Assembly (NCBI GenBank): GCA_018302335.1
Contig: JAGVZT010000047.1
Span: 1-61,042 of the forward strand
DNA from: Candidatus Woesearchaeota archaeon
GTDB taxonomy: Archaea; Nanobdellota; Nanobdellia; Woesearchaeales; JAGVZT01
Direction: 5' to 3'
DNA: 61,042 nucleotides
Position numbers and translations under genes: made by a program. A model generated the notes under the pieces. That model was not told the origin of the DNA and did no database searches. It saw only the letters and a list, made by a program, of their open reading frames with translations. Of this stretch, positions 7,364 to 22,077 are shown piece by piece (positions within the stretch are counted from its first letter, which is position 1; every line of letters starts with the position of its first letter).

Positions 7364-8218
7364 ATGGTCCTGTTCAACGAGACTCTGGGCAGCGGCCTGG
7401 CGGAGATTTCCAACTCCAGCGCCGCGGCCTTCGCCCTTGATTACGGCAGGCAGCTGCCATCTCTCGCGCTGCAGGGCAACTTTTTCGCGCTCGTGTTGGT
7501 GTGCATCTTCGGATGGGTGCTCATGGTCGTCCTCAACAAGCTCACCGGGGTGCTGCTGCAGCTCATCCGGCACACGTTCGTGTTCATCATCACCGGCTTC
7601 GGGGCGCTGTTCTTCTTCCTGGAGTTCCGGAGGCGTCTTGCCGGCGGCCTGACCACCGAGACGCTGGTGTTCGGCGCCCTCGGCCTGGCGGTGAGTGTCG
7701 TCGGGCTGCTCTTCGCGGTCTATGCCGTCGTCATGAAGGTAAGGGAGGCGCGTTCTCCCTGGCCCAAGCGGAGCTACGACCAGGCCAACGCCCTGCCGGT
7801 GGAGATGCCGGAGGAGCCTGAGCCGCCGAGGAACCTCGGAGAGTTCAGCGACATCTTCACCAACGTCAAGGACACGAGCCTGTTCTCGGCGCTGGCCTTC
7901 ATGGTGGTGGGGCAGTTTGGGGTGTTCAGCACCGAGACCTTCTCCGCCCCCACCGCGATGACCGGGTTCATCTTCCTTGTCGCATTCCTCATCGCCGCAA
8001 TGGTCTTCATCCGGCAGAGCTACAAGCGTTACATGCTCGGGGTGACCCATCTTATCGTGACGTTCGTGGTCGGTGTGATTCTCTCCATCTTCCTCGGCTC
8101 TGCCTGGGCGCAGTTGCCCTTGACCACCCTGCTCTCGGGTGCATACTTCACCACATCTTCCCTCGTCGCGCTCATCAGCGGGATGGCGCTTTCCATCTTC
8201 GCGGGAAGCAAGACCTGA
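7364..8218 (+). CDS. Integral membrane protein, function unknown
   Basis: 284 aa with multiple hydrophobic helices and a central acidic loop (PVEMPEEPEPPRNLGEF). Promoter lies at leaderless distance. Confidence 0.6.
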   Translation: MVLFNETLGSGLAEISNSSAAAFALDYGRQLPSLALQGNFFALVLVCIFGWVLMVVLNKLTGVLLQLIRHTFVFIITGFGALFFFLEFRRRLAGGLTTETLVFGALGLAVSVVGLLFAVYAVVMKVREARSPWPKRSYDQANALPVEMPEEPEPPRNLGEFSDIFTNVKDTSLFSALAFMVVGQFGVFSTETFSAPTAMTGFIFLVAFLIAAMVFIRQSYKRYMLGVTHLIVTFVVGVILSIFLGSAWAQLPLTTLLSGAYFTTSSLVALISGMALSIFAGSKT

Positions 8219-8237
8219 GGACGCATCCTGAGGGCCC

Positions 8238-8305
8238 CGGCCGCAATGCGGCAGGATATCCGCGTGGTCTCGCCGGCATACCGATGATTCTCCCCAGCGC
8301 GGCCG
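8238..8305. repeat. CGGCCG-bounded intergenic repeat, copy E (68 bp, both arms resemble the GGATAT arm)
   Basis: CGGCCGCAATGCGGCAGGATATCCGCGTGGTCTCGCCGGCATACCGATGATTCTCCCCAGCGCGGCCG. Confidence 0.75.
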
Positions 8306-8347
8306 GCCATGTGCCCGGGCATTTCTCTACGGCCGGCGCGACGAAAG

Positions 8348-8358
8348 CCTTATAAAAG
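8348..8358 (+). promoter_or_regulatory. TATA box
   Basis: CCTTATAAAAG, 21 nt upstream of ATG 8379. Confidence 0.6.
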
Positions 8359-8378
8359 TGGTTCCCCAGCGGAAAGGC

Positions 8379-9359
8379 ATGACTCTCCTGCTGGAGTTGC
8401 TCTTCTTCGTGCTGGCATGCGTGGTGCTGGTGAAGAGCGCCGGCATCATCGTCAATCACCTGACGCGTATCTCCTCCTTTCTCGGGCTGAACGAGTTCGC
8501 GATAGGGTTCATCATCATGGCCATCTCGACCACCCTGCCCGAACTCTTCATCGGCATCACCTCCGGGCTCCGGAAGGACACCGCCATCGCCCTCGGCACG
8601 GTCATCGGGAGCAACATCGCGGACCTCACCATCATCATCGGCGTGGTGGTCCTGGTCACGAAAAGCATCCGCATCCGGAGCCATATCATCCGGCGCGACC
8701 TCGTGTACATGCTCTTCATCCTCGTCCTGCCCATCCTGCTCATGCTCTGGCCGCCGACGTGGCTCAACGGCGCGCCAACGGAGGCCACCCTCTCCAGGGC
8801 CGAGGGGCTGCTGCTCATCCTCGTCTTCGTGTTCTACCTGTACATGACCATCCGACAGGAGCATTCCTTCCACAAGGAGATCCACCGCGCCTCCAGGCAC
8901 GAGGCCATGTCGAGCTTCCTGGTCACCGCGCTCATGGCCGGCGCCCTCTTCGGGAGCTCCCACTTCGTGGTGAAGCACGGCCTGGTCATCTCGGCCGCGC
9001 TCAATGTGCCTCCGATTCTCGTCGGCATCTTCCTCATCGCCCTGGGCACCTCGCTTCCCGAGCTGAGCTTCCAGCTCAAGGCGGTGAAAGGGAAGCACGA
9101 GGAGATGGCGCTCGGTGACCTCATCGGGGCGGTCATCGTCAATTCGACCCTCGTGCTGGGCATCACCGCGCTCATCTCCCCCATCCATGCCAACTTCTTC
9201 ATCTTCTTCACCAGCGCGATGTTCATGGTGGTCATCGCCTTCATCTTCCTCACCTTCGCGGAGTCCGACGGTGGCCTGAACTGGAAGGAGGGCATCTCCC
9301 TCGTGATGCTCTACGTCTTCTTCGTCATCGTGGAGAGCTACATCAAGACCCTGCAGTGA
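8379..9359 (+). CDS. Ca2+/cation antiporter (CaCA family, Na+/Ca2+ exchanger-like)
   Basis: Alpha-repeat motifs GTVIGSNIADLTIIIG and GTSLPELSF / GDLIGAVIVNSTLVLG, with about 10 TM helices. The track GTG at 8358 overlaps the TATA box, so the ATG at 8379 is preferred. Confidence 0.85.
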   Translation: MTLLLELLFFVLACVVLVKSAGIIVNHLTRISSFLGLNEFAIGFIIMAISTTLPELFIGITSGLRKDTAIALGTVIGSNIADLTIIIGVVVLVTKSIRIRSHIIRRDLVYMLFILVLPILLMLWPPTWLNGAPTEATLSRAEGLLLILVFVFYLYMTIRQEHSFHKEIHRASRHEAMSSFLVTALMAGALFGSSHFVVKHGLVISAALNVPPILVGIFLIALGTSLPELSFQLKAVKGKHEEMALGDLIGAVIVNSTLVLGITALISPIHANFFIFFTSAMFMVVIAFIFLTFAESDGGLNWKEGISLVMLYVFFVIVESYIKTLQ

Positions 9360-9366
9360 TTTTTTT
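9360..9366 (+). terminator. Oligo-T tract (T7) immediately after the stop codon
   Basis: TGATTTTTTTG. An archaeal-type oligo-T terminator, rare in this GC-rich sequence. Confidence 0.5.
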
Positions 9367-9412
9367 GTCCCACCGTGAGGGGAAATCCTTTTAGCGTCGG
9401 AAAGCCCTATCG

Positions 9413-9422
9413 CTTATATAAG
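9413..9422 (+). promoter_or_regulatory. TATA box
   Basis: CTTATATAAG, 17 nt upstream of ATG 9439. Confidence 0.55.
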
Positions 9423-9438
9423 AATCAGGGTGTCACAC

Positions 9439-9963
9439 ATGGTCTGCAGGTCGCACCTCCCGGTGTTCATGGGTCTCGCGCTCGCCGGCCAGGGGTACCG
9501 CCAGGCATACCCGGCCGCCATGGGGAGCGCGTATCGCTCTGCTCCGCTGTATGGCACCGCCGGAGCGGAGCTGGAGCGACTTGCCGCTGTCCGCGCGGAG
9601 CGCACCTCTGTGGTGGGAAGCGTGGACCGGCTGCTCTACAATCCCGTCAGCGCCGCCAGCGAGCCGCGCTACACCACGTCCTATCGGGCGGCGCGGCCTT
9701 ACGCGTCGCGGAGCCTCGAGGCTGCGGTGTCCTCCGTGCGCGTCGGCGAACAGATGGTCATCGGGCCGAAGCAGGAATCTCTCGAGGTCATCTCCCTCGA
9801 TGCGCCAGGACGGATGCCTGAGCTTCCGGTGGACCCAGAGCGACCGATCGCAGCAATCCAAAAAAATCCGGAGCCTGAGTTCCGCCGGAAGCAGGAGGAC
9901 CTGGCGCGGCGCATCCTGGAGGAGCTGCAGCGCACCTCCGCAGAAGAGATGGAGGTGATGTGA
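9439..9963 (+). CDS. Hypothetical protein: Tyr/Ala/Pro-rich N-terminal part and acidic helical C-terminus, SD-coupled to the downstream AAA+ ATPase
   Basis: The stop TGA (9961-9963) is 1 nt before the ATPase ATG. GGAGGTGA (9951-9958) inside its 3' end serves as SD for the next gene. C-terminal helix: EFRRKQEDLARRILEELQRTSAEEMEVM. Confidence 0.5.
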   Translation: MVCRSHLPVFMGLALAGQGYRQAYPAAMGSAYRSAPLYGTAGAELERLAAVRAERTSVVGSVDRLLYNPVSAASEPRYTTSYRAARPYASRSLEAAVSSVRVGEQMVIGPKQESLEVISLDAPGRMPELPVDPERPIAAIQKNPEPEFRRKQEDLARRILEELQRTSAEEMEVM

Positions 9964-9964
9964 G

Positions 9965-11029
9965 ATGTGCACGAGCGATGACGCAGAACGCAAGGTGAAG
10001 GCTGCGAGAGGCGACCCGGCCCAGGCCCGGAAAGAGCTTCTCGAGGCGGCCGAGATATATCTCACCCTGTCCATGAACGCCGACGGCAGGGAACGCGAGC
10101 ACCTCGCGAAGGCCGAGGAGCTCTTCAGCGAGGCTCGAAAGATTCCCGTGCCCGAGCACGTGCACGCCCCTGCCGCGAGACGCGGGCTGACCTTCAAGGA
10201 CATCGGGGGGCTGTCGGCGTTGAAGGAGGAGATACGCTTCAAGATCATCGAGCCCCTGCTCCACCCGGAGGTGTACGCGCATTACGGCAAGAAGGCAGGG
10301 GGCGGCATCCTGCTCTACGGCCCGCCCGGCTGCGGGAAGAGCCTCATCGCGGAAGCCACTGCCGGAGAGGCGAAGGCCGCGTTCTTCCACGTCAAGCCGA
10401 GCAACATCAAGAGCAAGTACGTGGGCGAGGCGGAGCGGAACATCGCGGAGCTCTTCCGCGCCGCTCGGGAGCAGCAGCCGAGCATCATCTTCTTCGACGA
10501 GTTCGAGACCCTTGGCGCCGAGCGCGGAGAGACCGCGGCGAACGAGCGCGGAGCCATCGCCCAGCTGCTGGCGGAGACCGACGGCATGGGCGCAAAGGGC
10601 CAGCAGGTCCTGCTGCTCGCGGCGACGAACGAACCGTGGAGCGTGGACCTGGCGCTGCAGCGCGAGGGGCGGTTCGGCGCGACGGTCTTCGTCCCCGCGC
10701 CGGACTCCGAGGCGCGGAAGGAGATATTCAAGATTCACCTGGCCGGGAAGCCCCTCTCCCGGGACATCCGCGGCGAGGAGCTGCTGGCCATGACCGAGGG
10801 TTTCTCAGGTGCAGACATCAAGGCGGTGTGCGAGAAGGCTGCGGACATCCCGTTGCGGGAGTACTTCCGCACCGGGGAGATGCGGCCCCTCCACATGGCG
10901 GATTTCCTTTCCGCGTTGAAGGGCCACCGCTCCGTCGTGGGACAGTGGCTGGCCAAGGCGAGGCGCGAGATGGGGAGCAGGAATGCGCTGGAGCAGTATC
11001 CCGAGCTTACTTGCGGAGCCGCGCCGTGA
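9965..11029 (+). CDS. Single-domain AAA+ ATPase (classic CDC48/Vps4-type clade) with a short N-terminal helical domain
   Basis: Walker A GPPGCGKS, Walker B IIFFDEFE, second region of homology ATNEPWSVDLALQREGRFG. About 60 aa of N-terminal helical region (AQARKELLEAAEIYL...AKAEELFSEARK). Confidence 0.88.
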   Translation: MCTSDDAERKVKAARGDPAQARKELLEAAEIYLTLSMNADGREREHLAKAEELFSEARKIPVPEHVHAPAARRGLTFKDIGGLSALKEEIRFKIIEPLLHPEVYAHYGKKAGGGILLYGPPGCGKSLIAEATAGEAKAAFFHVKPSNIKSKYVGEAERNIAELFRAAREQQPSIIFFDEFETLGAERGETAANERGAIAQLLAETDGMGAKGQQVLLLAATNEPWSVDLALQREGRFGATVFVPAPDSEARKEIFKIHLAGKPLSRDIRGEELLAMTEGFSGADIKAVCEKAADIPLREYFRTGEMRPLHMADFLSALKGHRSVVGQWLAKARREMGSRNALEQYPELTCGAAP

Positions 11030-11333
11030 AGGCGTGGTACGCCCGCACGTACCCAAGGTACAGCAGCCCGAAGAGCCCGCTGAAGAACGCCCACCGTTCG
11101 ACTCCGGAGAGGTCCACCTTGCCGAACCAGAGCGCGCTGGTCCCGGGCCCGCCGATGGTGAGGGATTCCCAGCCTTCCTGGCCGCAGAGCGCCCAACGGC
11201 CCGCGTGCGCGCCCTCGGGCGCCTGTGCGTACTTGCACGGCGAGAGGGGCAACAGCAGGATGACCGTGAACAGGGCCAGCGCGGCGACCGCGCCCGTGCG
11301 CAGGATGGGGTCCTCGATGAAGGATTCGCGCAT
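11007..11333 (-). CDS. Small membrane protein (108 aa)
   Basis: From the internal ATG of track ORF 11007..11540: two hydrophobic helices (GAVAALALFTVILLLPL and WAFFSGLFGLLYLGYV). The upstream part of that ORF has shadow-like composition. Confidence 0.4.
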   Translation of the reverse strand: MRESFIEDPILRTGAVAALALFTVILLLPLSPCKYAQAPEGAHAGRWALCGQEGWESLTIGGPGTSALWFGKVDLSGVERWAFFSGLFGLLYLGYVRAYHAFTARLRK

Positions 11334-11355
11334 ACTCCTGCTTCGGGAAGCGGTG

Positions 11356-12582
11356 CTACTTAAGATTTGTGGTGCGTTCGAGCGCCAGGATGAGCATCGC
11401 GTGGCTCCACGCAAGGGGCGTGATGCTGGGCTTCCCGTGGGCCTGCTCAGGCAGGTAGGGCCACGTTGGCTCCGCGGAGCGCAGGACGAAGCGGAGCTGC
11501 TCCATGGCGTGGGGATGCTGGCCCGCCTCCTCCAGGACAATCGCCGCGAAACAGCTCAGCAGGGGCCATGGCCCCGCGCCGGTGAATGTGGGCGTGCCGT
11601 GCCCCATTCCGCCGCAATACACATCGCCAGGGTAGCGGACCAGTCCCCCGTCGCGGCCGCACTCCCGGAAGATGCTCTCCAACGTAGGGGACATCCGTGC
11701 ATCGTCCGGCGGGAGGAGCTGAGCGGGCCACACCAGGCCGAGAAGGGAGCTGTCGGTCAGGGAGGAGACATCCCCTGCGGCGTGGGCATGCCGGTACTGC
11801 GACGTCTCGGGATAGGTCCTCGGCAGGGGGCCGCTTCCCGAGGCGTAGGCCAGCCCGAACATTCTCCGCATTCCAGCCGAAAGCTCCCGCCAGTCCGGCA
11901 CGTTCTGGTGCGCGGGAAGCATCTCCGCAGCGAGGTCCATCGCCCGGATGCACATGGCAAGGGAATAGAGGTGATGCTCGCCTGGCTGCGCCGCGCGCTC
12001 CTCCCAGCAGTCATAGTGGGGAAGCGTGAAGCCACCCGCTCTCCCCAAGCTGGCATCCCAGTGGCTGACGAGCCCATCGGCCGCAGTGGAGACAAGTTCC
12101 GCCAGCGAGCCCTCCGGCGCGAGGTTCCAGCGCCTGCAGTGCTCTGCAGCCGCGATGATGACGCTGCCGTTCTGGTCCGGCTGGAACTGGCTGCACGTTC
12201 CTCCGATGTGGAGGAAGCTGCGCTCGAGCTCGGGGGCGAGATGGAGCTCCTCGCGGTTCAGGCCCGTGCCCCCGACGGTGCCGTTGACGTGGTACGCGGT
12301 GTGGAAGATGCCTGTCTCGCGGAAGCCCTCGGCGCGCTCAACGCACCAGGAGAAGAACCTCCGTGGAATGTCCCGCATGCCGAGGCAGTCAGCCGCCATG
12401 GCGATGTATGCCGCGTCCCGGGGCCACACCGCGAGGTAGTCCTGGCAGTCCTTGGGATAGACGGAGAGTCCGCTGTTCGCCGCGACGAGCGCGCCGTTCG
12501 GGAAGGCACTGGCGGCGATGACATCACGGCTGGCCCGGACAAGCTCCGCGACTCTTCCCCGCTCAGCGGCGGAGAAGGGCAT
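11356..12582 (-). CDS. Glycoside hydrolase family 15 (glucoamylase/trehalase-like catalytic domain)
   Basis: AFPNGALVAANSG, YLAVWPRDAAY, (alpha/alpha)6-barrel-like length. Its ATG overlaps the upstream gene's stop as ATGA at 12580-12584. The track extension to 12744 was rejected. Confidence 0.82.
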   Translation of the reverse strand: MPFSAAERGRVAELVRASRDVIAASAFPNGALVAANSGLSVYPKDCQDYLAVWPRDAAYIAMAADCLGMRDIPRRFFSWCVERAEGFRETGIFHTAYHVNGTVGGTGLNREELHLAPELERSFLHIGGTCSQFQPDQNGSVIIAAAEHCRRWNLAPEGSLAELVSTAADGLVSHWDASLGRAGGFTLPHYDCWEERAAQPGEHHLYSLAMCIRAMDLAAEMLPAHQNVPDWRELSAGMRRMFGLAYASGSGPLPRTYPETSQYRHAHAAGDVSSLTDSSLLGLVWPAQLLPPDDARMSPTLESIFRECGRDGGLVRYPGDVYCGGMGHGTPTFTGAGPWPLLSCFAAIVLEEAGQHPHAMEQLRFVLRSAEPTWPYLPEQAHGKPSITPLAWSHAMLILALERTTNLK

Positions 12583-13379
12583 CAGTGCCCACCGGAGAAG
12601 GCGCCCGTGAGCGGGACGGCGAGGAGCTCCTTGGCCATCGTGGGCTCGACGAGGCGCACTTCCTGGGGCGACAAGCCAAGCGCCTGCCTGGTCTTCTCGT
12701 CCACGACAGCGATGAGCTTGGACTGGCGCTCGATGATGGGCCACTGCTTCTTGTAGGGCTCGTCGCCGATGCCGAGGTCGTAGGAGCGCTTCCCCCGTGA
12801 GATGGTATCGAGGATGTCACGGTGCAGCAGGAAGGTGGGGATGCAGCGTCGCTTGTGCTCGCGGTTCCACCAGCAGCCGAGGTAGTAGACCTGCTCGCCA
12901 TCCTCCATGGTGAGATGCACTCCCAGGAGTTCTTCTCCGACGAAGGCCGCGGTCCATCGCGCCTCCTTGAGGTAGAGGTCCATGCGCTGCCTCATGTCGC
13001 GCTTGGACTCCTTGAACTGGGCGACGAACCATGCGGACGCAGCCTCGAGGTCCCCGGGGCGGCCCTCGCGGAAGGTGACATCGGCGTTGAGCTTCGCGAT
13101 GCGCTTCAGGTCCTTTCTCAGGTCGGAGTCCAGCGCAAGCTCCTCCTGCCGCGGCGGGAGCGCGATGATGTTGGTCTTCGCGTCCTCGTCGTCGCAGACG
13201 GTCCCGACGGGACTATCGCAGTGCACCGAGAACGAGACAAAGGGGAGAGGGAGCTGCCCGACGTCGCGCTCCTCGAGCCAGATGTAGGGGAGGTACCAGA
13301 CGTCGCGGTGGGTCCAGTAGCTCACGTCGCGGGTGAGGCGCACCTTCCGGAACCGAAGCGGCATCGACTTGATGTCCAT
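12582..13379 (-). CDS. FemAB-like / BioF2-like GNAT-fold acyl- or peptidyl-transferase (Acetyltransf_6-like)
   Basis: C-terminal signature SYDLGIGDEPYKKQW, preceded by YYLGCWWNREHKR. The ATG at 13379 is 21 nt from an A/T box. Confidence 0.68.
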   Translation of the reverse strand: MDIKSMPLRFRKVRLTRDVSYWTHRDVWYLPYIWLEERDVGQLPLPFVSFSVHCDSPVGTVCDDEDAKTNIIALPPRQEELALDSDLRKDLKRIAKLNADVTFREGRPGDLEAASAWFVAQFKESKRDMRQRMDLYLKEARWTAAFVGEELLGVHLTMEDGEQVYYLGCWWNREHKRRCIPTFLLHRDILDTISRGKRSYDLGIGDEPYKKQWPIIERQSKLIAVVDEKTRQALGLSPQEVRLVEPTMAKELLAVPLTGAFSGGH

Positions 13380-13399
13380 AGCCAGAGTGAACACCGATA

Positions 13400-13411
13400 G
13401 GAATAAAAAGC
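13400..13411. promoter_or_regulatory. Shared A/T box in a 74-bp divergent spacer
   Basis: GGAATAAAAAGC. 21 nt from the minus-strand ATG at 13379 and 43 nt from the plus-strand ATG at 13454. Confidence 0.45.
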
Positions 13412-13453
13412 CTGCGGATTTTTTCCGGACCAGATGCATGCCGTAGGTGCGTG

Positions 13454-15871
13454 ATGACCGAAGAATTCTCCGGGAAGACTCTCCTGTTCGTGAACTCCGG
13501 TTCCAGGAAGAAGGAATTCATCTTCCAGCGCGCGAAGGACCTCGGCCTGAAGGTCGTGCTGGTCAACTCCCAGCTGAGCTGGGAGAAGAAGTATGTGGAC
13601 CACTTCATCCAGGCGGACACCTATCAGCACGGTGAGGTCCTGCGCAAGCTCCGCTCCTTCCTGAAGCAGGAGCGCTTCGACGGGGCAGTGACGTTCTGGG
13701 AGGACGACGTCCCGCTGCTGGGCGCGATATGCGAGAAGTTCAAGTTTCCCGGCCCCGACAGGGCGAGCGCCCGGCTCTCCAGGAACAAGTACGAGATGCG
13801 GAGCGCCTTCAAGGCGAACGGGACTCCCTGCCCGGACTTCAGGCTCGTGACATCCGAGGAGGAGCTCATCGCCGCCATGCCGGTGATAGGCTTTCCTTCG
13901 GTCATCAAGCCCGCATGGGGTTCAGATAGCGAGTTCGTCATCAAAGTCACCTCCGAAGAGGAGGCGAAGCAGGTCTTCTCCTACGTGAAGAAGAACGCGA
14001 CCCCGAAGTTCAATCCCATCTTCCGCTACAACGATTCGCAGTTCGTGTTCGAACAGTTCATGGAGGGCCACGAGGTCAGCGTGGAGAGCGTGACGCAGGA
14101 CGGCGCGACGCACGTGCTGGCCATCGTGGACAAGGCCCCGATGCGCGAGCCGTACTTCATGGAGCGCGGGGACAGCGCGCCGACGCGCTACCCTGGCGAC
14201 ATGAAGAGGCGCATCGACGAGGCGGTGAAGCTCGCCCACGCCGCGGTGGGGGTGAAGAGCGCGGTGACCCACACCGAGGTGAAAATCACTCCGAACGGCC
14301 CGATGGTCGTGGAGATAGCGTCGCGCATGGGCGGCGACTACATCTGGGACTGGGTCAAGACCATCTGGGGCGTGGACCTCGTGGAGGAGAGCTTCCGCAT
14401 CGCGTTGGGCATCCCTGTTCGGGCGGAGAAGCGCAGGGATCCCGCCTGCCACCTGGTGGGGCAGTACATCATCCCGGAGAACAGCGGCATCATCTCAACC
14501 ATCCAGGGAGCGTCTGACCTGGGGAAGCAGCCCGGCATCCACAGCGTCTACCTCGCCAAGCGCGTCGGAGACACCATCCTCGTCCCGCCCGAGGGCTTCG
14601 AGACCGTGGGGTGGGTGGTAGCCCAGGGGGAGAGCGAGACCGAGGCCGAGCGCAACCTCTTCAACGCCGTGTCGGCGCTGAAGGTGGAGGTCATCCAGTT
14701 CAAGCCCACGAGCAGCATCGGGAAGACGGTGCGGCCGAACAAGTGGAGCGCAGCGTCCCTGAACCGGCGCGAGATCCTCTCCGGGGCGCGCATCGAGCGC
14801 CTCAGGACCTTCACTCGGGAGGACGTGAAGAAGCTGAACGTGGGTATCCTCTGCAATGTCTACGACACCGGCGCAAATGGCACCGCGAGCGAGGTGGAGG
14901 CGGACCTCATGTCAGTGGGTCTGAACATCCAGAAGGCCCTGGAATCCCGGGGCCACAAGGTGACCTTCTTTGACATGAACGAGGACCCCATCCCCTTCAT
15001 GAAGCTCTACCGCTCCAAGGTGGACATCCTCTTCAATGTCTGCGAGCGCATCAACGACTCCTCCCTCCTGGAATCCCACGGCGCCGCCCTGCTGGACATC
15101 CTGAAATACCCGTACACTGGCTCGAATCCCCTGACGCTGGCGCTCTCGATAGACAAGATACGAGTCAAGCAGCTGCTGGACTTCCACAACATCCCCACGC
15201 CGAAGTGGGACTACGCGTACAGCATGGACGACGACATAGATGAGGAGCTGCGCTACCCCCTCATCGTGAAGCCGGCAGACACGGACAACTCCATCGGCAT
15301 CACGAACGAGTCCGTGGTGACGGACAAGGAGCAGCTCCGGGGCCAGCTCCAGAAAGTCATCGTGGACAACGGCAGGCCGGCGCTGGTGGAGGAGTACATC
15401 GACGGCGACGAGTACGACGTGAGCATCATGGGGAGCGAGGACGACGTGAAGGTCCTGCCGCTCTCGCGGAGCATCTTCGACGACCTGCCCCCGGGCTTCT
15501 GGCACATCTTCCCCTACGACGCGAAGTGGCATGATGGCACGGTCTACGACAAGATACGCAGCGAGCGGCCGCCGAAGATACTCAACAGGCTGGCGCGGCT
15601 CATCACGGAGATTGCCCTGGATACGTACAACATCCTCGACTGCCACGACTACGGACGTGTGGAGATACGCGTGGACAAGGAAGGGAATCCTTTCGTGCTG
15701 GAGCTGAACCCGAACCCGAGCATCAACCGGAATGACTGCGTCCCGGCGTGCGCGGAGCTGGTGGGGATGAGCTACGAGGACTTCATCGAGGAGATACTGT
15801 TCTCTGCCATCAAGCGCTACAAGGACAGGCCACCCTACTACCACTTGCAGAGCACCCAGGCGTTCTTCTGA
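13454..15871 (+). CDS. Tandem ATP-grasp ligase: N-terminal L-amino-acid-ligase/carboxylate-amine-ligase-like half fused to a C-terminal D-Ala-D-Ala-ligase-like half
   Basis: 805 aa. First half: FPSVIKPAWGSDSEFV, FEQFMEGHEVSVES, VVEIASRMGGD. Second half: RYPLIVKPADTDNSIGI, VEEYIDGDEYDVSI, DYGRVEIRVDKEGNPFVLELNPNPSI. Confidence 0.85.
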   Translation: MTEEFSGKTLLFVNSGSRKKEFIFQRAKDLGLKVVLVNSQLSWEKKYVDHFIQADTYQHGEVLRKLRSFLKQERFDGAVTFWEDDVPLLGAICEKFKFPGPDRASARLSRNKYEMRSAFKANGTPCPDFRLVTSEEELIAAMPVIGFPSVIKPAWGSDSEFVIKVTSEEEAKQVFSYVKKNATPKFNPIFRYNDSQFVFEQFMEGHEVSVESVTQDGATHVLAIVDKAPMREPYFMERGDSAPTRYPGDMKRRIDEAVKLAHAAVGVKSAVTHTEVKITPNGPMVVEIASRMGGDYIWDWVKTIWGVDLVEESFRIALGIPVRAEKRRDPACHLVGQYIIPENSGIISTIQGASDLGKQPGIHSVYLAKRVGDTILVPPEGFETVGWVVAQGESETEAERNLFNAVSALKVEVIQFKPTSSIGKTVRPNKWSAASLNRREILSGARIERLRTFTREDVKKLNVGILCNVYDTGANGTASEVEADLMSVGLNIQKALESRGHKVTFFDMNEDPIPFMKLYRSKVDILFNVCERINDSSLLESHGAALLDILKYPYTGSNPLTLALSIDKIRVKQLLDFHNIPTPKWDYAYSMDDDIDEELRYPLIVKPADTDNSIGITNESVVTDKEQLRGQLQKVIVDNGRPALVEEYIDGDEYDVSIMGSEDDVKVLPLSRSIFDDLPPGFWHIFPYDAKWHDGTVYDKIRSERPPKILNRLARLITEIALDTYNILDCHDYGRVEIRVDKEGNPFVLELNPNPSINRNDCVPACAELVGMSYEDFIEEILFSAIKRYKDRPPYYHLQSTQAFF

Positions 15872-15888
15872 GCTCGGGTGGGGACCGG

Positions 15889-15959
15889 CGGCCGCAATGG
15901 CGTCCGTTCTCCGCGCTGTCTCGCTGCTCTCGGTGCGAGCAAACGCTTAAGAGCGGCCG
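15889..15959 (+). repeat. CGGCCG-bounded intergenic repeat, copy F (71 bp, divergent right arm)
   Basis: CGGCCGCAATGGCGTCCGTTCTCCGCGCTGTCTCGCTGCTCTCGGTGCGAGCAAACGCTTAAGAGCGGCCG. Retains the central GCTGTCTCGC core. Confidence 0.65.
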
Positions 15960-15981
15960 GGCGTTCCCTCCGCCGGGGGAG

Positions 15982-16899
15982 ATGGCAACTTCGCTGGACT
16001 ATCAAGGACTGAGCTACCAGCAGCTGCTCTGGAGCCTCATCGCGAAGGCCTGCTCCGCTGGCCTGAAGGCCGAGTTCTACGGAGTGCTGCGCTATCCGGA
16101 GGGGGAGTTCCCGCTGCTGAAGCTCTCCTCCATGGAGCACGAGAGGCTCGTGGTCGTCTCGGCGAACATCCACGGGGACGAGGTCGCCGGCGCGCTCACC
16201 TTCGAGCACCTCGGGGATATCTTCTCCTACGCGGATGCCCGGAAGGTGAGCCTCATTGCCTACCCCTGCACCAATCCCACAGGCTTCGACCGCCGCATCC
16301 GCTACAACATCCGGAACGAGATGGGGAACAACGATTTCCTGCGGTACATCCTCCCTGACGGCAGCGCGGTGGACGACATCGGCGAGGGGCGGGATTTCGT
16401 CGAGTGGAAGTGGTCCTCGGACGCATCACTGGGCCAGAAGCTCCCTCTGGAGACGCAGCTGCTGCATGAGGAGCTGAAGAGGCTGCCCTTCGGGTGCATC
16501 AAGGGTGCTGCGGACCTGCACCAGGACTGCTTCCTGGACTTCTGCGCCACGCACTATGGCAGCTATGCGTATGTCCTGGACAAGAAGGAGGAGTTGGCGC
16601 CCATCGCGCGGCAGGCTGAGGGCATCGTGCCGCTCCTGCGGAACACCCAGATCACCTCTGGCTACGGCACGGTCGTCGACGAGAACGGGCAGGTCATTGC
16701 CAACTCCTCCATCGGGCCGTGGACGGACGGGCATGGCTTTGTGAAGCGCCACGACGGCTCGCTGCAGGACCTCTTCCATCGGCTTGGCGTTCCGTACACC
16801 GTCACCGTGGAAACGACGGGAAATGTCCCGCTGGAGAAGTCTGTCGCGGTCAATCTCGCCTGGGTCCGGGGCATCATCGACCTCGCGGCGCGGGCGTAG
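15982..16899 (+). CDS. M14-family zinc peptidase / AstE-AspA (succinylglutamate desuccinylase-aspartoacylase)-like amidohydrolase
   Basis: HxxE zinc motif in VVVSANIHGDEVAG, a second His in GAADLHQD, and a C-terminal acidic catalytic candidate in YTVTVETTG. The track extension from 15748 overlaps the ATP-grasp gene and copy F. Confidence 0.72.
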   Translation: MATSLDYQGLSYQQLLWSLIAKACSAGLKAEFYGVLRYPEGEFPLLKLSSMEHERLVVVSANIHGDEVAGALTFEHLGDIFSYADARKVSLIAYPCTNPTGFDRRIRYNIRNEMGNNDFLRYILPDGSAVDDIGEGRDFVEWKWSSDASLGQKLPLETQLLHEELKRLPFGCIKGAADLHQDCFLDFCATHYGSYAYVLDKKEELAPIARQAEGIVPLLRNTQITSGYGTVVDENGQVIANSSIGPWTDGHGFVKRHDGSLQDLFHRLGVPYTVTVETTGNVPLEKSVAVNLAWVRGIIDLAARA

Positions 16900-16969: not shown

Positions 16970-17089
16970 ATGACTGAAGCTTTTTACCGGCTGCGCGTCG
17001 GCCAATACCGTGTCATTCTGGACATTGCTGATGCGGAACTCATCATCTACGTCATCGAGCTTTGCCACAGCCGGGACATCTACGCCTGA
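16970..17089 (+). pseudogene. Remnant (C-terminal ~39 aa) of a RelE/ParE-family type II toxin
   Basis: Translation is MTEAFYRLRVGQYRVILDIADAELIIYVIELCHSRDIYA*, which matches the conserved RelE/ParE C-terminal block (yRlRvGdYRviY.i....i.v..i.HRkdiY). An in-frame stop lies at 16949-16951. No N-terminal half and no antitoxin gene are present. Confidence 0.5.
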
Positions 17090-18198
17090 GTCCAGCGCTC
17101 GCCGTCCCACGCGTACGGGACGCCGTCGAACGCGATTCTTCCGCCTTCTCTGAGGTCCTTGATGAGGTCCCAGTGGATTGCGCTCTTGTTGAGGCCGCCG
17201 TTCTCGTCATAGGCGCGGCCCAGCGCGAAGTGCGCGCTGCCGCCGATTTTCTCGTCGAAAAGGATGCGCTTGGTGCTGCGCTGGATGCCCGGGTTCGTGC
17301 CGATGCCGAGCTCTCCCAGCGTCCGCGAGCCGCTGTCCGTGTCGAGCATGGCGATGAGGAACTCCTCGTTCTTCGCTGCGCTGGCGTCGATGACTTTCCC
17401 GGCTGAGAACTTCAGGGTGACATCAGCGACCTCGCGCGCCTGGTAGACCTGCGGGAACTCCGAGAAGCGGATGATGCCGTCGACCGCGTCCTCCAGGGGC
17501 GCGGTGAAGACCTCGCCGCTCGGCATGTTGTGTGTGCCCGCTGAGTTTATTGCATTCCGGCCGGAGACTCCGAGGGTGAGGTCGGTGTCCTTGCCCAGGA
17601 TGCGCACTTCGCTGGAGCGGTTGAGCAGGTCCGCGAGAGACTGCTGCGTGGCCTCGAGCTCCTTCCATGCGCGCATCGGGTCCTCGCGCTCGAGGAACAT
17701 CGAGGCGTAGACGAAGCGCTCGAACTCCGGGAGGGACATCTCCGCATCCTGGGCGTAGGCGTCGGTGGGGTAGAGCGTCGAGGTCCAGCGGACTTTTTCG
17801 CTTCCGTCCGGATTCCTGCCCATGATGCGCTCGCTCACGGGTTGGAGAACCTTGCTTCTTGCGGAGACGCGGCCGGGGTCGACGCCCGAGAGCGATTTCG
17901 TGTTGGTCTCCGAGGCGACGTGGACGAGGACGTCTGCATGCTCCGCGTCGAACATCTCGAAGACAGAGCGCGCCATGACGTCGTCGCTCGCATGCTCGTA
18001 GTAGAGCGGCCCTTGCCAGCCGAAAGCAATGCGCAGGACGGGCTCCGCCCCTCGGCGCAGCACCGCGGCGTACAGTTCGCGGAGCAGCGGTTCCGCCACC
18101 GGCGTTCCGCGGATGAGCACGCGGTCTCCGGAGGCTACCGGCGCGCTGTAGTCGATAAGAAGCGACGCGTACCTCTCCATCAGGTCCATAACACTCAC
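17080..18198 (-). CDS. Aminopeptidase, M29 (AmpS/aminopeptidase T) family
   Basis: GTHNMPSGEVFTAP, LGELGIGTNP, FDEKIGGSAHFALG. The track start is GTG at 18198; the first ATG is at 18189. Confidence 0.87.
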   Translation of the reverse strand: MSVMDLMERYASLLIDYSAPVASGDRVLIRGTPVAEPLLRELYAAVLRRGAEPVLRIAFGWQGPLYYEHASDDVMARSVFEMFDAEHADVLVHVASETNTKSLSGVDPGRVSARSKVLQPVSERIMGRNPDGSEKVRWTSTLYPTDAYAQDAEMSLPEFERFVYASMFLEREDPMRAWKELEATQQSLADLLNRSSEVRILGKDTDLTLGVSGRNAINSAGTHNMPSGEVFTAPLEDAVDGIIRFSEFPQVYQAREVADVTLKFSAGKVIDASAAKNEEFLIAMLDTDSGSRTLGELGIGTNPGIQRSTKRILFDEKIGGSAHFALGRAYDENGGLNKSAIHWDLIKDLREGGRIAFDGVPYAWDGERWTQA

Positions 18199-18270
18199 CC
18201 CGCGCAGGGGGGTGGCTGGGCGCTTAAAAGCGTTTGCCGGGCTTGGCGTCGGTCGGGCTAACCTCGAACC

Positions 18271-18864
18271 CTACCTGCTCGAGTCCGCCTGGCGCTCAAT
18301 CTCGAGCTTGCGCGCGATGGCCAGGGAGTTGGCGTTCGACTGGAACGCGGAGAGAATCTCGTCAGCGAGCGCGTGCTCCGCGCTAACCTTCTTGTCGAAG
18401 CACCGCGTGTACGTGCCCTGGACGAAGAAGCGCAGCGCCACGTCGACGCGCCGCTGGGGAGCGCACTCGACTGCCTTCGGGTATCTCGCGCCGCCGTACT
18501 CAATCGAGATGATCTCCTCGCGCGGAGCGGCGTTCTCAATCGCCTTGACAAAGACTTCGAGGGGGTTCTTCTTGGTGCGTTGCTCGATGATGGTAAAGGC
18601 AGACTCGACAAGCTTGAGGGTATGGACCTTCTTCCCGGTGTTGTGGCCCGAGGAGCGGTTGTGCTTCTTTCCCTTGTGGCCAGGGACCATGAGCTTGCCT
18701 ACCAGCCGCTCCACGATGAACGTCTTGGACCTGTGGAATCGCAATTTCGCATTTCTGCCGCCGGTGCTCGCGACCACGGAGGTCGCAAGGGAGATATAGT
18801 CCTTCAGCCCGGGGTCGGTGACCTTGATGCCTTCTGCGCTCCAGCGGTTGAATGACAGCACCAT
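18271..18864 (-). CDS. rps7: 30S ribosomal protein uS7
   Basis: LVGKLMVPGHKGKKHNRSSGHNTGKK...ARYPKAVECAPQRRVDVALR. ATG at 18864 is 23 nt from a TATA box. The track TTG start at 18879 is less likely. Confidence 0.93.
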   Translation of the reverse strand: MVLSFNRWSAEGIKVTDPGLKDYISLATSVVASTGGRNAKLRFHRSKTFIVERLVGKLMVPGHKGKKHNRSSGHNTGKKVHTLKLVESAFTIIEQRTKKNPLEVFVKAIENAAPREEIISIEYGGARYPKAVECAPQRRVDVALRFFVQGTYTRCFDKKVSAEHALADEILSAFQSNANSLAIARKLEIERQADSSR

Positions 18865-18886
18865 GTTCCCTGGGAGCAATCCCGGT

Positions 18887-18899
18887 GGCTTTTTAAAGG
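18887..18899 (-). promoter_or_regulatory. TATA box for rps7
   Basis: GGCTTTTTAAAGG, 23 nt upstream of ATG 18864. Confidence 0.55.
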
Positions 18900-18912
18900 T
18901 TTCTCTGAGAAA

Positions 18913-18923
18913 GGTTTTAATAC
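18913..18923 (+). promoter_or_regulatory. TATA box for gatD-gatE
   Basis: GGTTTTAATAC, 22 nt upstream of ATG 18945. Confidence 0.55.
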
Positions 18924-18944
18924 TGTCAGGACGCCCGGGAAGCC

Positions 18945-20231
18945 ATGCCAGAGCCCGGCGACCGCGTCCGCGTGCGCACCCCGAAGGAGACGGTGGAAGG
19001 CCTGCTCATGCCCACTCCCGAGTACCAGGCGGACATCCTGGTGCTCAAGCTTGACAGCGGCTACAATGTCGGTATCGATAGGAAGACTCTTTCTTCGGTC
19101 GAGTTGGTGAGCAGTCAGCGAGATGCCCACGCGGCAACGCGGCCGAGAGAGCAGAAGAAAAATCTTCCTCTCATCACCGTGCTGCACACCGGGGGCACCA
19201 TCGCGAGCAAGGTGGACTACAAGACCGGAGGGGTCGTCGCACGATTCTCCCCCGAGGAGCTCCTGGGCCTCTTCCCTGAGCTGGGGGACATCGCCCAGGT
19301 CCGTTCGAGACTGGTGCGCAACATGTGGAGCGAGGACATGCGCTTCCCGCATTACAACCTCCTCGCGGAAGAGGTCGCGAAAGAGGCGAGGGCCAGGGGC
19401 GTCATCATCACTCACGGGACAGACACCTTGCACTACTCGGCCGCCGCTCTTGCCTTCGCCCTGGAGAACATCAACATCCCCGTGCTCCTCGTGGGCGCCC
19501 AGCGGAGCTCCGATAGGGGAAGCAGCGACGCAGGGATGAATCTTCTGAGCGCCGCGCGGTTCATCGCGGCGAACACCGGCTTCCATGGCGTCGCGCCCTG
19601 CATGCACGCATCGCGGAGCGATGACGACTGCTGGATACTGCCGCCCTGCCGGACGAGGAAGATGCACACCTCGCGCAGGGACGCATTCCGTCCGGTGAAC
19701 GCGGGGCCGCTCGCGCGCGTGCGCCATGGCGAAGTCACCATCCTCGACCGGAGCAGCCATCACTTCAGCCAGCCCGGCCCGTTCCGCCTTCGCCCCTTCC
19801 AGGATGTCAAGGTCGGCCTCCTGAAGGCCCATACCAACATGTTCGCCTCCGAGTGGCTCGCATACAAGGGCTTCCACGGACTCGTGGTCGAGGCCACCGG
19901 CCTCGGCCAGGCTCCGGTCAACGAGATTGACGCGGAGACGAAAGAGCACGCGAAGATACGCACCGCGCTCAAGGAGCTTCTCGCGGAAACCGTTGTCGCG
20001 TTCGCCCCCCAGACCATCTATGGACGCCTGAACATGGATGTCTACCAGCCTGCGAGGGAGCTGCAGGACCTTGGCGTCCTTGGGCACCTGTGCGACATGA
20101 CGCCCGAGACCGCGTTCATCAAACTCGCGTGGCTGCTGAGCAACGAGCCAAAGCGTGTCAGAGAGCTTTACGCGAAGGACCTGCGCGGAGAGCTCAGGGA
20201 GCGCAGCGAGCCCGAGCGCTTCCTGGTGTGA
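18945..20231 (+). CDS. gatD: Glu-tRNA(Gln) amidotransferase subunit D
   Basis: Asparaginase-type motifs VLHTGGTIAS and IITHGTDTLHYSA; archaea-specific GatD length (428 aa). Confidence 0.93.
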   Translation: MPEPGDRVRVRTPKETVEGLLMPTPEYQADILVLKLDSGYNVGIDRKTLSSVELVSSQRDAHAATRPREQKKNLPLITVLHTGGTIASKVDYKTGGVVARFSPEELLGLFPELGDIAQVRSRLVRNMWSEDMRFPHYNLLAEEVAKEARARGVIITHGTDTLHYSAAALAFALENINIPVLLVGAQRSSDRGSSDAGMNLLSAARFIAANTGFHGVAPCMHASRSDDDCWILPPCRTRKMHTSRRDAFRPVNAGPLARVRHGEVTILDRSSHHFSQPGPFRLRPFQDVKVGLLKAHTNMFASEWLAYKGFHGLVVEATGLGQAPVNEIDAETKEHAKIRTALKELLAETVVAFAPQTIYGRLNMDVYQPARELQDLGVLGHLCDMTPETAFIKLAWLLSNEPKRVRELYAKDLRGELRERSEPERFLV

Positions 20232-20232
20232 G

Positions 20233-22077
20233 ATGGCATCGACCAGAGCGACAAAGACTGCGCCACCTCGGCCGGATTTTTCGGGCAGTCTCCGGTGCGG
20301 CCTGGAGATTCACCAGCAGCTTGACACGGAAAAGCTCTTCTGCTCCTGCCCGAGCAGCCTCAGGGACGACCAGCCGGACATCCTCGTCGAGAGAGAGCTG
20401 CGCGCGTCAGCGGGAGAGGAAGGCGGAGTGGATATCGCCGCCGCTGCCGAGCAGGCGAAGCGCAAGAGCTACCTCTACCAGGCCTACAGCGATACCACCT
20501 GTCTCGTGGAACTCGATGAAGAGCCGCCCCATCCGCTCAACCGCGACGCCCTGGGCGTCGCCCTCCAGGTCTCGCGGATGCTCGGCATGGTCCCCGTCGC
20601 GAGCATCCAGGTCATGCGCAAGACCGTCGTCGACGGCAGCAACACCAGCGGCTTCCAGCGCACCGCGCTCGTCGCGAGGAACGGCGTCCTGAAGACCGCG
20701 CACGGCGATGTGACCATCCCGACCCTGTGCATCGAGGAGGACGCCGCGAAAATCGTCGCGCGGGAGGCGCAGCGGGATGTGTACAATCTCTCCAGATTGG
20801 GCATCCCGCTCATCGAGATTGCCACCGGGCCGGACATCACCTCGCCGGAGATGGCCCGCGAGGTCGCGCTCCAGCTGGGGATGCTTCTCCGCTCGACCGG
20901 CAGGGCGAAGCGCGGTCTCGGCACCATCCGCCAGGACCTCAATGTCTCCATTCCCCAAGGGGCGCGCATCGAGATCAAGGGCGCGCAGGAGCTGGACCTG
21001 CTCCCGAAGCTTGTCGAGATGGAAGCGCTTCGGCAGCGGAACTTGCTTGACATCGCGGCCGGGCTGCGCGACGCGAAAGCCGGCAAGCCCGTGGATGTCA
21101 GCAGCGTCCTCAAGAAGAGCGCGAGCAAGGTCATCCGGGCCGCGCTCGACTCCGGCGGAGCGGCGCTCGCCTGTCGCATGGAGGGCTTCGCCGGCATGCT
21201 CGGAAAGGAGGTCCAGCCGGGCAGACGTCTCGGCACGGAACTTGCGGACCATGCGAAGGTCATGGGTGTCAAGGGGCTGTTCCACAGCGATGAGTTGCCT
21301 GCGTATGGCATCACTGTCGAAGAAGTCGCCGCATTGAGGAAGGCGCTCGGGTGCAAGGAGCACGATGGCTTCATCCTCATCGCGGACGCGAAGGAGCGCG
21401 CGGAGCGGGCGATGGCCGCGGCGCTCGGCCGCGCCGAACAGGCACGCAGTGAGGTGCCGCGCGAAGTCCGCAAGGCGAACGAGGACGCGACAACGAGCTT
21501 CCTGCGGCCCATGCCAGGCTCCTCACGGATGTATCCGGAGACCGATGTGCGCAGCATCCGCGTCACCGCGGAGATGCTCTCTTCTCCCCTTCCTGAGCTG
21601 CTCTCATCGAAGGAAGAGCGCTTCGCGAAGCAGCTTCCGCGGGACCTCGCGCACCAGCTGGTCTGGGGAGAGCGCTGGCCGCTGTACGAGCGGGCGGCGC
21701 GGCGCTGGCCGGAGCTGAAGCCAGTCTTCGTCGCGGAGACGCTCGTTTCTGCGCCGAAAGAGATACGGAAACGCCACGGTTTCGACCTCGACGCGTCCGA
21801 TGCGGATTTCGAGTTGCTGTTCGATGCGGTGAGCCATGGCACCATCGCCCAGGAGGCGGTCTTCGAGCTCCTCGTGCAGAAGGCGCAGGGCAAGCCTCTG
21901 GACATCGCATCCTTCTCGCTGCTGTCCGACAAGGAACTGCAGCTTAGGCTCAGGGCGATAGTCGCCGCGAATCCGAAAGCGCCTCTCAACGCCCTGATGG
22001 GCATCGCGATGAAGGAGCTGCGCGGCAAGGCGGACGGCAAGAGGATTGCGGCGCTGCTCCAGGAGTTCAGCGGGTAG
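20233..22077 (+). CDS. gatE: Glu-tRNA(Gln) amidotransferase subunit E
   Basis: LRCGLEIHQQLDT...LFCSCPS with a GatB/E core. The ATG is 2 nt after the gatD stop. Confidence 0.93.
   Translation: MASTRATKTAPPRPDFSGSLRCGLEIHQQLDTEKLFCSCPSSLRDDQPDILVERELRASAGEEGGVDIAAAAEQAKRKSYLYQAYSDTTCLVELDEEPPHPLNRDALGVALQVSRMLGMVPVASIQVMRKTVVDGSNTSGFQRTALVARNGVLKTAHGDVTIPTLCIEEDAAKIVAREAQRDVYNLSRLGIPLIEIATGPDITSPEMAREVALQLGMLLRSTGRAKRGLGTIRQDLNVSIPQGARIEIKGAQELDLLPKLVEMEALRQRNLLDIAAGLRDAKAGKPVDVSSVLKKSASKVIRAALDSGGAALACRMEGFAGMLGKEVQPGRRLGTELADHAKVMGVKGLFHSDELPAYGITVEEVAALRKALGCKEHDGFILIADAKERAERAMAAALGRAEQARSEVPREVRKANEDATTSFLRPMPGSSRMYPETDVRSIRVTAEMLSSPLPELLSSKEERFAKQLPRDLAHQLVWGERWPLYERAARRWPELKPVFVAETLVSAPKEIRKRHGFDLDASDADFELLFDAVSHGTIAQEAVFELLVQKAQGKPLDIASFSLLSDKELQLRLRAIVAANPKAPLNALMGIAMKELRGKADGKRIAALLQEFSG

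Follow-up and report, generated by a model that had tools for sequence, protein, structure and literature searches.

Natural-product pathways combine aminoacyl-tRNA-dependent transferases with other ligases. Pathways that use two ATP-grasp ligases are also described: FuzC and FuzH build the tripeptide backbone of fuscazine (PMC13149037), and HsvB/HsvC of phevamine (PMC6187163) and RhiM/RhiC of rhizocticin (PMC13579937) belong to tripeptide or peptide-amine pathways of this two-ligase kind. Here we analysed positions 1 to 61,042 of contig JAGVZT010000047.1 (assembly GCA_018302335.1) from a Candidatus Woesearchaeota archaeon, a stretch that we call the window, and focused on a gene for an 805-amino-acid (aa) tandem ATP-grasp ligase (13454-15871, plus strand), referred to below as the fusion protein. 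It is faced across a short divergent spacer by a gene for an Acetyltransf_6 (PF13480) protein of GNAT type (12582-13379, minus strand). We found that the fusion protein represents a large, inter-domain, uncharacterised family of ATP-grasp peptide ligases, present in very small archaea and bacteria of groundwater, that is neither rare nor archaeon-specific. Our favoured reading, to which we assign a probability of roughly 0.45, is that the two genes form a module, consisting of a double ligase and a FemX-like transferase, that builds a short non-ribosomal peptide; the fuscazine ligases offer a precedent for it.

A first-pass annotation of this locus had described the fusion protein as two complete ATP-grasp modules, one like L-amino-acid ligases (LALs) and one like Ddl, the D-alanine-D-alanine ligase, and matches in Pfam, NCBIfam and the PDB confirmed this description. 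Within the LAL-like module (residues 1-415; 13454-14698, plus strand), residues 25-414 contain the Pfam domains ATPgrasp_N, ATP-grasp_4 and LAL_C2 at 41.2, 98.4 and 53.6 bits (cut-offs 27, 27 and 29.4, respectively), and residues 18-399 match the L-amino-acid ligase BL00235 (PDB 3VOT, E 1e-30). In an alignment of 119 full-length fusion homologues, K152, E207, H273, E275, E287 and R291 showed little or no variation; K152, H273/E275, E287 and R291, present in 114-119 of the 119 sequences, align with their counterparts in BL00235 and BacD. The module thus has the domain set of a LAL together with its Lys and Arg of catalysis and both of its acidic residues for Mg binding. The linker that follows (residues 416-470; 14699-14863, plus strand) keeps S420, G423 and R427 in 116-119 of the 119 homologues within an SSIGKTxR motif, and, given this conserved motif, it is not a loose tether between the ligase modules.

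The Ddl-like module occupies residues 471-805 (14864-15871, plus strand). Pfam Dala_Dala_lig_C covers residues 590-783, the NCBIfam Ddl model PRK01372 aligns over its positions 15-302 of 305 with residues 477-787, and residues 475-790 match Ddl structures in the PDB. K606, E646/E647, K691, R735, E737, E750 and N752 are conserved in the same alignment, and 112-119 of the 119 homologues have K606, K691, R735, E737, E750 and N752. Mapped via the Yersinia orthologue 4ZQI, the conserved residues correspond, numbered as in E. coli DdlB, to K144, the E180 region, K215, R255, D257 (as E), E270 and N272; K144, K215, R255, D257, E270 and N272 are residues that serve ATP, Mg and the transition state. An early concern that one ATP-grasp half might lack catalytic residues is therefore dispelled, and both halves, as judged from their sequences, look catalytically competent.

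The residues that bind D-Ala are not retained. S150 is replaced by N612, Y216 by W692, S281/L282 by D761/C762 and H63 by E, and N612, W692, D761 and C762 are themselves kept in 75-100% of the 119 homologues. The equivalent of E15 of the Ddl triad is kept in only 81 of the 119, the HGxxGEDG loop of Ddl gives way to a family-specific NVCERIN.SSLLE.H motif, and all Ddl models score under their cut-offs (191.6 bits versus 243 for PRK01372; 150 versus 245.65 for TIGR01205), the equivalogs far under them. These replacements bear on the idea that D-Ala-D-Ala or D-Ala-D-X is what the C-terminal half really makes, with the protein providing the peptide of a wall that resembles murein or pseudomurein. 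The best NCBIfam and PDB matches of this half are indeed Ddl, and a MurL-like epimerase accompanies the fusion protein in some bacteria, but the sub-threshold score, the conserved substitution of H63, S150, Y216, S281 and L282 and the exchanged loop make this the most improbable of the explanations that we considered. The family is, moreover, common in DPANN archaea, from which murein is not known. Because the catalytic residues are kept, the D-Ala residues are replaced and the scores fall below the cut-offs, the C-terminal half appears to be a competent ATP-grasp ligase that is not assignable as a D-Ala-D-Ala ligase.

The two-module architecture proved to be widespread. Among the word-indexed matches listed were 120 proteins, all but three of them 789-947 aa long and with 47-100% identity across no less than 98% of the query, and the named members among these matches came from DPANN archaea, Elusimicrobia, Peregrinibacteria, Patescibacteria, Nitrospirota and others. 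Homologues on both sides of the archaea-bacteria divide (DPANN archaea, Patescibacteria, Elusimicrobia and others) stand at 47-62% identity. A scan of one genome per species detected relatives in at least 519 GTDB species, archaeal and bacterial. In an exhaustive search of 50%-identity representatives, full-length relatives matching in a single stretch were found down to 30% identity; the same search also returned proteins with one half only and giant proteins with terminal LAL-like domains. The persistence of the one-chain architecture in at least 519 species and down to 30% identity implies selection for both activities on one chain. The names that databases give to family members and to seemingly unfused relatives are generic (ATP-grasp domain-containing protein, D-alanine-D-alanine ligase, biotin carboxylase), our literature searches found no description of a LAL-Ddl fusion, and no characterised enzyme matches the protein, in agreement with the first-pass annotation, which did not recognise the LAL-Ddl tandem in a described archaeal pathway.

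Some distant relatives depart from this architecture. P0301 (5940 aa), P0302, P0304, P0308, P0309 and others, proteins of 1100-5900 aa, carry C-terminal or near-C-terminal domains 34-39% identical to the LAL-like half, and proteins of ~680-840 aa combine one half with a different second region, possibly in reversed order. The seemingly unfused half P0310 is probably a fragment, because its contig is short and an 802-aa protein falls into the same cluster, and other such halves may be fragments too.

The Acetyltransf_6 protein (265 aa) matches PF13480 at 43 bits (cut-off 22) and contains the motif DLGIGDEPYKKQW. Its AlphaFold2 (AF2) model has a pLDDT (predicted local distance difference test) score of 90.7, and in the PDB it most resembles FemX, the aminoacyl-tRNA-dependent peptide synthases Sbb17/Sba18, the C-domains of MprF/aaPGS, ATE1 and the L/F-transferase. 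All of the top 20 matches belong to the aminoacyl-tRNA-dependent transferase group (probability 1.00, template modelling (TM) score 0.37-0.51). The FemAB-like assignment thus holds at the level of the fold: the GNAT-derived fold of FemABX-type proteins is present, and the model suggests that the protein has the fold of aminoacyl-tRNA-dependent transferases. Protein-aminoacylating enzymes are included in this FemX/ATE1/L/F-transferase fold, as taggers of proteins are among ATP-grasp enzymes, and weak RimK-family matches occur in both halves of the fusion protein in Pfam and NCBIfam. The fusion protein might on these grounds modify a protein or a ribosomal peptide, at the C-terminus or on a side chain in the manner of RimK or tubulin ligases, instead of making a free metabolite. 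We consider this unlikely, as the best matches are ligases of free amino acids (LAL and Ddl) and no conserved gene for a small substrate adjoins the fusion gene.

The link between the two genes was followed in other genomes, in a set of 80 GTDB loci plus the contigs of close relatives (about 85 loci other than that of the window). The divergent pair is kept in five close relatives (L092, L093, L174, L175 and L176), in which the fusion halves are 67-82% and the GNAT protein 54-60% identical to those of the window; the outer flanks differ in all five, with CorA, PmbA/TldD, a class-II aminoacyl-tRNA synthetase (aaRS) and an AAA ATPase among them. Acetyltransf_6 genes also adjoin the fusion gene in nine of the 80 GTDB loci, in several phyla, and in L086, which makes ten further distinct loci. 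The Acetyltransf_6 protein is the only proposed partner linked to the fusion protein in other genomes.

Several points weigh against the two-gene module. Some 80% of the fusion loci are without any recurrent partner, so the fusion protein can evidently work alone. When the DPANN GNAT family was followed from its own side in 80 metagenome loci, none had a fusion gene within 8 kb, and in 58 of the 64 loci that extend far enough to show it a conserved 145-aa open reading frame (ORF) lay just upstream on the same strand instead. Because the link is weak from the GNAT side, the pairing in the clade of the window could be inherited synteny. The best fold matches of the GNAT protein are moderate (TM 0.45-0.51, 11-15% identity), and no substrate is assigned to any step. 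The main rival explanation draws on the first three of these points: the fusion protein would be a self-sufficient two-step ligase to which no window neighbour is tied, and the GNAT protein would be part of a different system, DPANN-wide and centred on the 145-aa ORF. We regard this as rather unlikely, though less so than any other alternative, since the pair survives in the five relatives despite the rearrangement of both outer flanks. Other Acetyltransf_6 subfamilies, furthermore, adjoin the fusion gene independently in bacteria, in nine of 80 loci where about 1-2 would be expected by a rough estimate (not computed) from the few copies per genome.

The 145-aa ORF is a near-obligate partner of the GNAT gene in loci L094-L173 (for example, L144:7570-8007, plus strand, before the GNAT gene at 8013-8726). 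It has no Pfam match, shows the motifs HVaEWSRR, LCvHE.iEkF, D.EAH, GNWrSH and WDWH, and occurs neither in the window nor in any fusion locus. A class-II aaRS of the Asp/Asn/Lys type adjoins the module in L092 (4287-5069) and L174 (3714-5015), in both cases downstream of the fusion gene, and in five of 32 DPANN GNAT loci (L140, L147, L152, L153 and L169), upstream of the 145-aa ORF and the GNAT gene; in four of these five it is present as two tandem paralogues, 36% identical in L152. The adjoining aaRS genes give a weak, contextual hint that the donor is an aminoacyl-tRNA, and may hint at which one.

Two further neighbours, one on each outer side of the pair, had been counted as partners in the first-pass annotation. 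Downstream of the fusion gene lies a gene for an M14/AstE-AspA-type zinc carboxypeptidase or deacylase (305 aa; 15982-16899, plus strand). Its score against PF24827 is marginal (27.5 bits, cut-off 25), but the HxxE...H zinc ligands and the catalytic Glu (H64, E67, H180 and E277, in the motifs IHGDE, DLH and VETTG) are invariant in 23 homologues, and its AF2 model (pLDDT 93) matches M14-type (Shewanella M14-like) metallopeptidases and carboxypeptidases, so that the original call of an M14-type zinc amidohydrolase is upheld. Beyond the GNAT gene, the GH15 protein (408 aa; 11356-12582, minus strand) scores above the cut-off of PF00723 (46.2 versus 22 bits) and far below that of TIGR01577 (72 versus 820.7); it has only the catalytic domain, the N-terminal domain being absent. 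Both proteins look intact from their sequences.

We examined their linkage by direct and iterated hidden Markov model (HMM) searches of 86 fusion loci with the M14, GH15 and M29 proteins of the window. GH15 was beside the fusion gene in none of the approximately 85 other loci, its adjacency being seen only on contigs with the identical fusion protein. The M14 family was found in one (L048, convergent, with the trimmed 305-aa query). Wherever the contig reaches far enough, M14 is not beside the fusion gene in the close relatives L174, L175 and L092, and in all five close relatives neither M14 nor GH15 adjoins the fusion-GNAT pair on the sides that the contigs cover. In a related genome (GCA_053531035.1), the contig with the fusion-GNAT pair is not the one that bears two M14 homologues; there, the M14/AstE-like gene is tandemly duplicated (L178:4369-6234, 296 and 294 aa). 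The reverse test from the M14 side met three contexts, unrelated neighbourhoods with nothing related to the locus, and that from the GNAT side met no M14 and no GH15 in the 80 metagenome loci. The M14 and GH15 adjacencies are specific to this species, and because its adjacency is not conserved, the module probably does not require M14.

These results settle most of what had been proposed for the four genes together, namely a make-and-trim system like that of N-acetylglutaminylglutamine amide (NAGGN) or N-acetylaspartate/N-acetylaspartylglutamate metabolism, in which the ligase and GNAT protein build a peptide that M14 would trim or recycle and GH15 would attach to a glycan. The apparent integrity of all four proteins, their tight spacing (a one-base overlap between GNAT and GH15, and 110 bp without an obvious terminator between the fusion and M14 genes), the convergent M14-like gene of L048 and the genome with fusion and M14 homologues on different contigs are compatible with such a system. 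They are outweighed by the counts given above, by the unrelated contexts of the M14 homologues and by the lack of any AsnO-type amidotransferase Pfam family among the called genes within 10 kb. The four-gene system is thus largely refuted by missing co-conservation; we consider it very improbable and do not carry it forward. Because GH15 and M14 are not co-conserved, the compatible solute that is made and trimmed, the glycan-linked stem peptide and the analogy with NAGGN lose their basis, and of the expected co-conservation only that of Acetyltransf_6 stands. The broader proposal of a peptide-ligase or small-peptide role remains the most reasonable reading of the domain assignments.

Fusion genes in other lineages have partners of other kinds. 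Among 45 same-strand genes immediately downstream, the most frequent Pfam families were Acetyltransf_6 (five), extra ATP-grasp proteins (five) and GalE-type epimerases (four), and no Pfam family recurred among the same-strand upstream neighbours. A compact operon of Patescibacteria type (L064, at 8583-15076, L070 and L074) comprises a MurL-like PP-loop protein, the fusion protein, a 445-aa ATP-grasp protein and a pyridoxal phosphate (PLP) enzyme like diaminopimelate (DAP) decarboxylase; the PP-loop protein, of 456 aa, is weakly similar to the peptide epimerase MurL. In a second operon form (L055, L061 and L072), the fusion gene is accompanied by genes for a stand-alone LAL, an ATP-grasp protein, sometimes a GNAT protein, and a PLP decarboxylase. 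The Patescibacteria-type operons look like an undescribed ATP-grasp peptide assembly line. Searches of the 61-kb window for a MurL-like protein, a third ATP-grasp protein, a PLP decarboxylase, an aminotransferase, the 145-aa ORF and a class-II aaRS found none.

Taken together, the operons with a further ATP-grasp protein, a MurL-like epimerase and a DAP-decarboxylase-like enzyme point to the assembly of a short, modified, non-ribosomal peptide. According to the two-gene reading, each module of the fusion protein would link an amine to a carboxylate that it has first converted to an acyl-phosphate. The N-terminal module is similar to enzymes that make alpha-dipeptides from free L-amino acids. 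The C-terminal module, because its substrate pockets differ from those of Ddl, would probably carry out a second, different ligation, either extending the dipeptide or coupling it to another amine; a cationic nucleophile is hinted at by the Asp that replaces the Ddl Ser binding the carboxylate of D-Ala2. The product to be expected of this one polypeptide would have the size of a tripeptide. The Acetyltransf_6 protein, if its modelled fold is a guide, would probably add one further residue from an aminoacyl-tRNA to an amine of this product, or prepare a substrate in the same way. We infer the order of the steps, the action of both modules on the same molecule, the dependence on tRNA and any coupling to M14 or GH15.

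A more far-reaching proposal, which we put forward with considerable doubt, is that the fusion protein is a single-chain tripeptide or peptide-amine synthetase for one conserved, central small molecule of ultra-small DPANN archaea, Patescibacteria and Elusimicrobia, extended in some lineages by the FemX-like aminoacyl-tRNA-dependent transferase. The genomes of DPANN archaea and Patescibacteria are very small and hold few genes for biosynthesis, yet hundreds of species have kept this double ligase of 800 residues, with about 50% identity between archaea and bacteria; such conservation argues for a defined and important product. If the proposal is true, candidate molecules would be a thiol of low molecular weight, an osmolyte or a component of the envelope, and a widespread, undescribed peptide pathway of primary metabolism would exist in organisms thought to be almost without biosynthetic capacity. 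The fusion protein, soluble and self-contained, would be a tractable entry to the metabolism of these lineages and possibly a one-protein tripeptide biocatalyst.

The ORF listing of the window and independent gene calls on identical public contigs, from the Rifle aquifer and other metagenomes, agreed on the four genes as first annotated. The stop codon of the GNAT gene and the start codon of the GH15 gene share one base in TGATG, where an ATGA overlap had been reported. The divergent spacer (13380-13453) measures 74 bp, as first described, if the GNAT protein begins at MDIKS (13379), but only 14 bp with the start at 13439 of the longest ORF and of the public gene call; we favour the MDIKS start because GNAT homologues measure 235-265 aa. 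This spacer contains two A/T-rich boxes, AATAAAAA at 13402-13409 on the plus strand and AAAAAAT at 13418-13424 on the minus strand, each 39-45 nt from the respective start codon, which are plausible candidates for back-to-back archaeal TATA boxes and promoters. Following GH15 on the same strand, gene calls on the identical contigs place a hydrophobic ORF of 108 aa (11007-11333, minus strand), for which a Pfam search gave no family match and whose 3' end overlaps the 3' end of a convergent AAA ATPase gene. On the other side (17080-22077), an M29 aminopeptidase gene is convergent to the M14 gene and is followed by the genes for ribosomal protein S7 and GatD/GatE; in this species, the 3' side of the ligase gene is thus flanked by two different metallopeptidases, and S7 stands alone, outside its usual S12-S7-EF cluster. 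The named relatives of window genes come from Woese-, Nano- and Micrarchaeota and Diapherotrites and, like the presence of GatD/GatE, indicate a DPANN archaeon. G+C content is even across the window at ~0.63-0.68 (genome 64%), PADLOC defence models gave no match, and Rfam found one tRNA only.

The fusion protein is worth a biochemical test, yet it is not a new kind of system. The N-terminal half aligns end to end with LALs (BL00235, BacD/YwfE and RizA, with ATP-grasp_4 and LAL_C2) and shares their HTE...E-x-x-x-R-x-G-G catalytic motif, whereas known LALs are stand-alone enzymes of ~410-470 aa and this one is joined to a second ligase, at a low identity that does not tell which substrates it would use. 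The C-terminal half covers nearly the whole Ddl model and keeps the equivalents of K144, K215, R255, D257 (as E), E270 and N272, but differs in its sub-threshold scores, its substituted D-Ala-binding residues and HGxxGEDG loop, and its position behind a LAL. In structure, the Acetyltransf_6 protein comes closest to FemX, Sbb17/Sba18, MprF and ATE1, which it matches at 11-15% identity and a TM score of only ~0.5; it is shorter than FemX (~240-265 versus 335 aa). The NAGGN system, with its Ngg GNAT-ATP-grasp fusion, AsnO and a peptidase, likewise brings together a GNAT protein, an ATP-grasp ligase and a peptidase, but Ngg has a single ATP-grasp module fused to GNAT, whereas here GNAT is a separate gene, AsnO is missing from the called genes within 10 kb and the peptidase partner is not conserved; the locus does not belong to the Ngg/AsnO type. 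FuzC/FuzH, HsvB/HsvC and RhiM/RhiC share with the proposed module two sequential ATP-grasp ligations that yield a short non-ribosomal peptide; their ligases are separate proteins of taxon-restricted secondary-metabolite clusters, whereas here a single chain carries both modules and is kept at 47-62% identity in archaea and bacteria alike.

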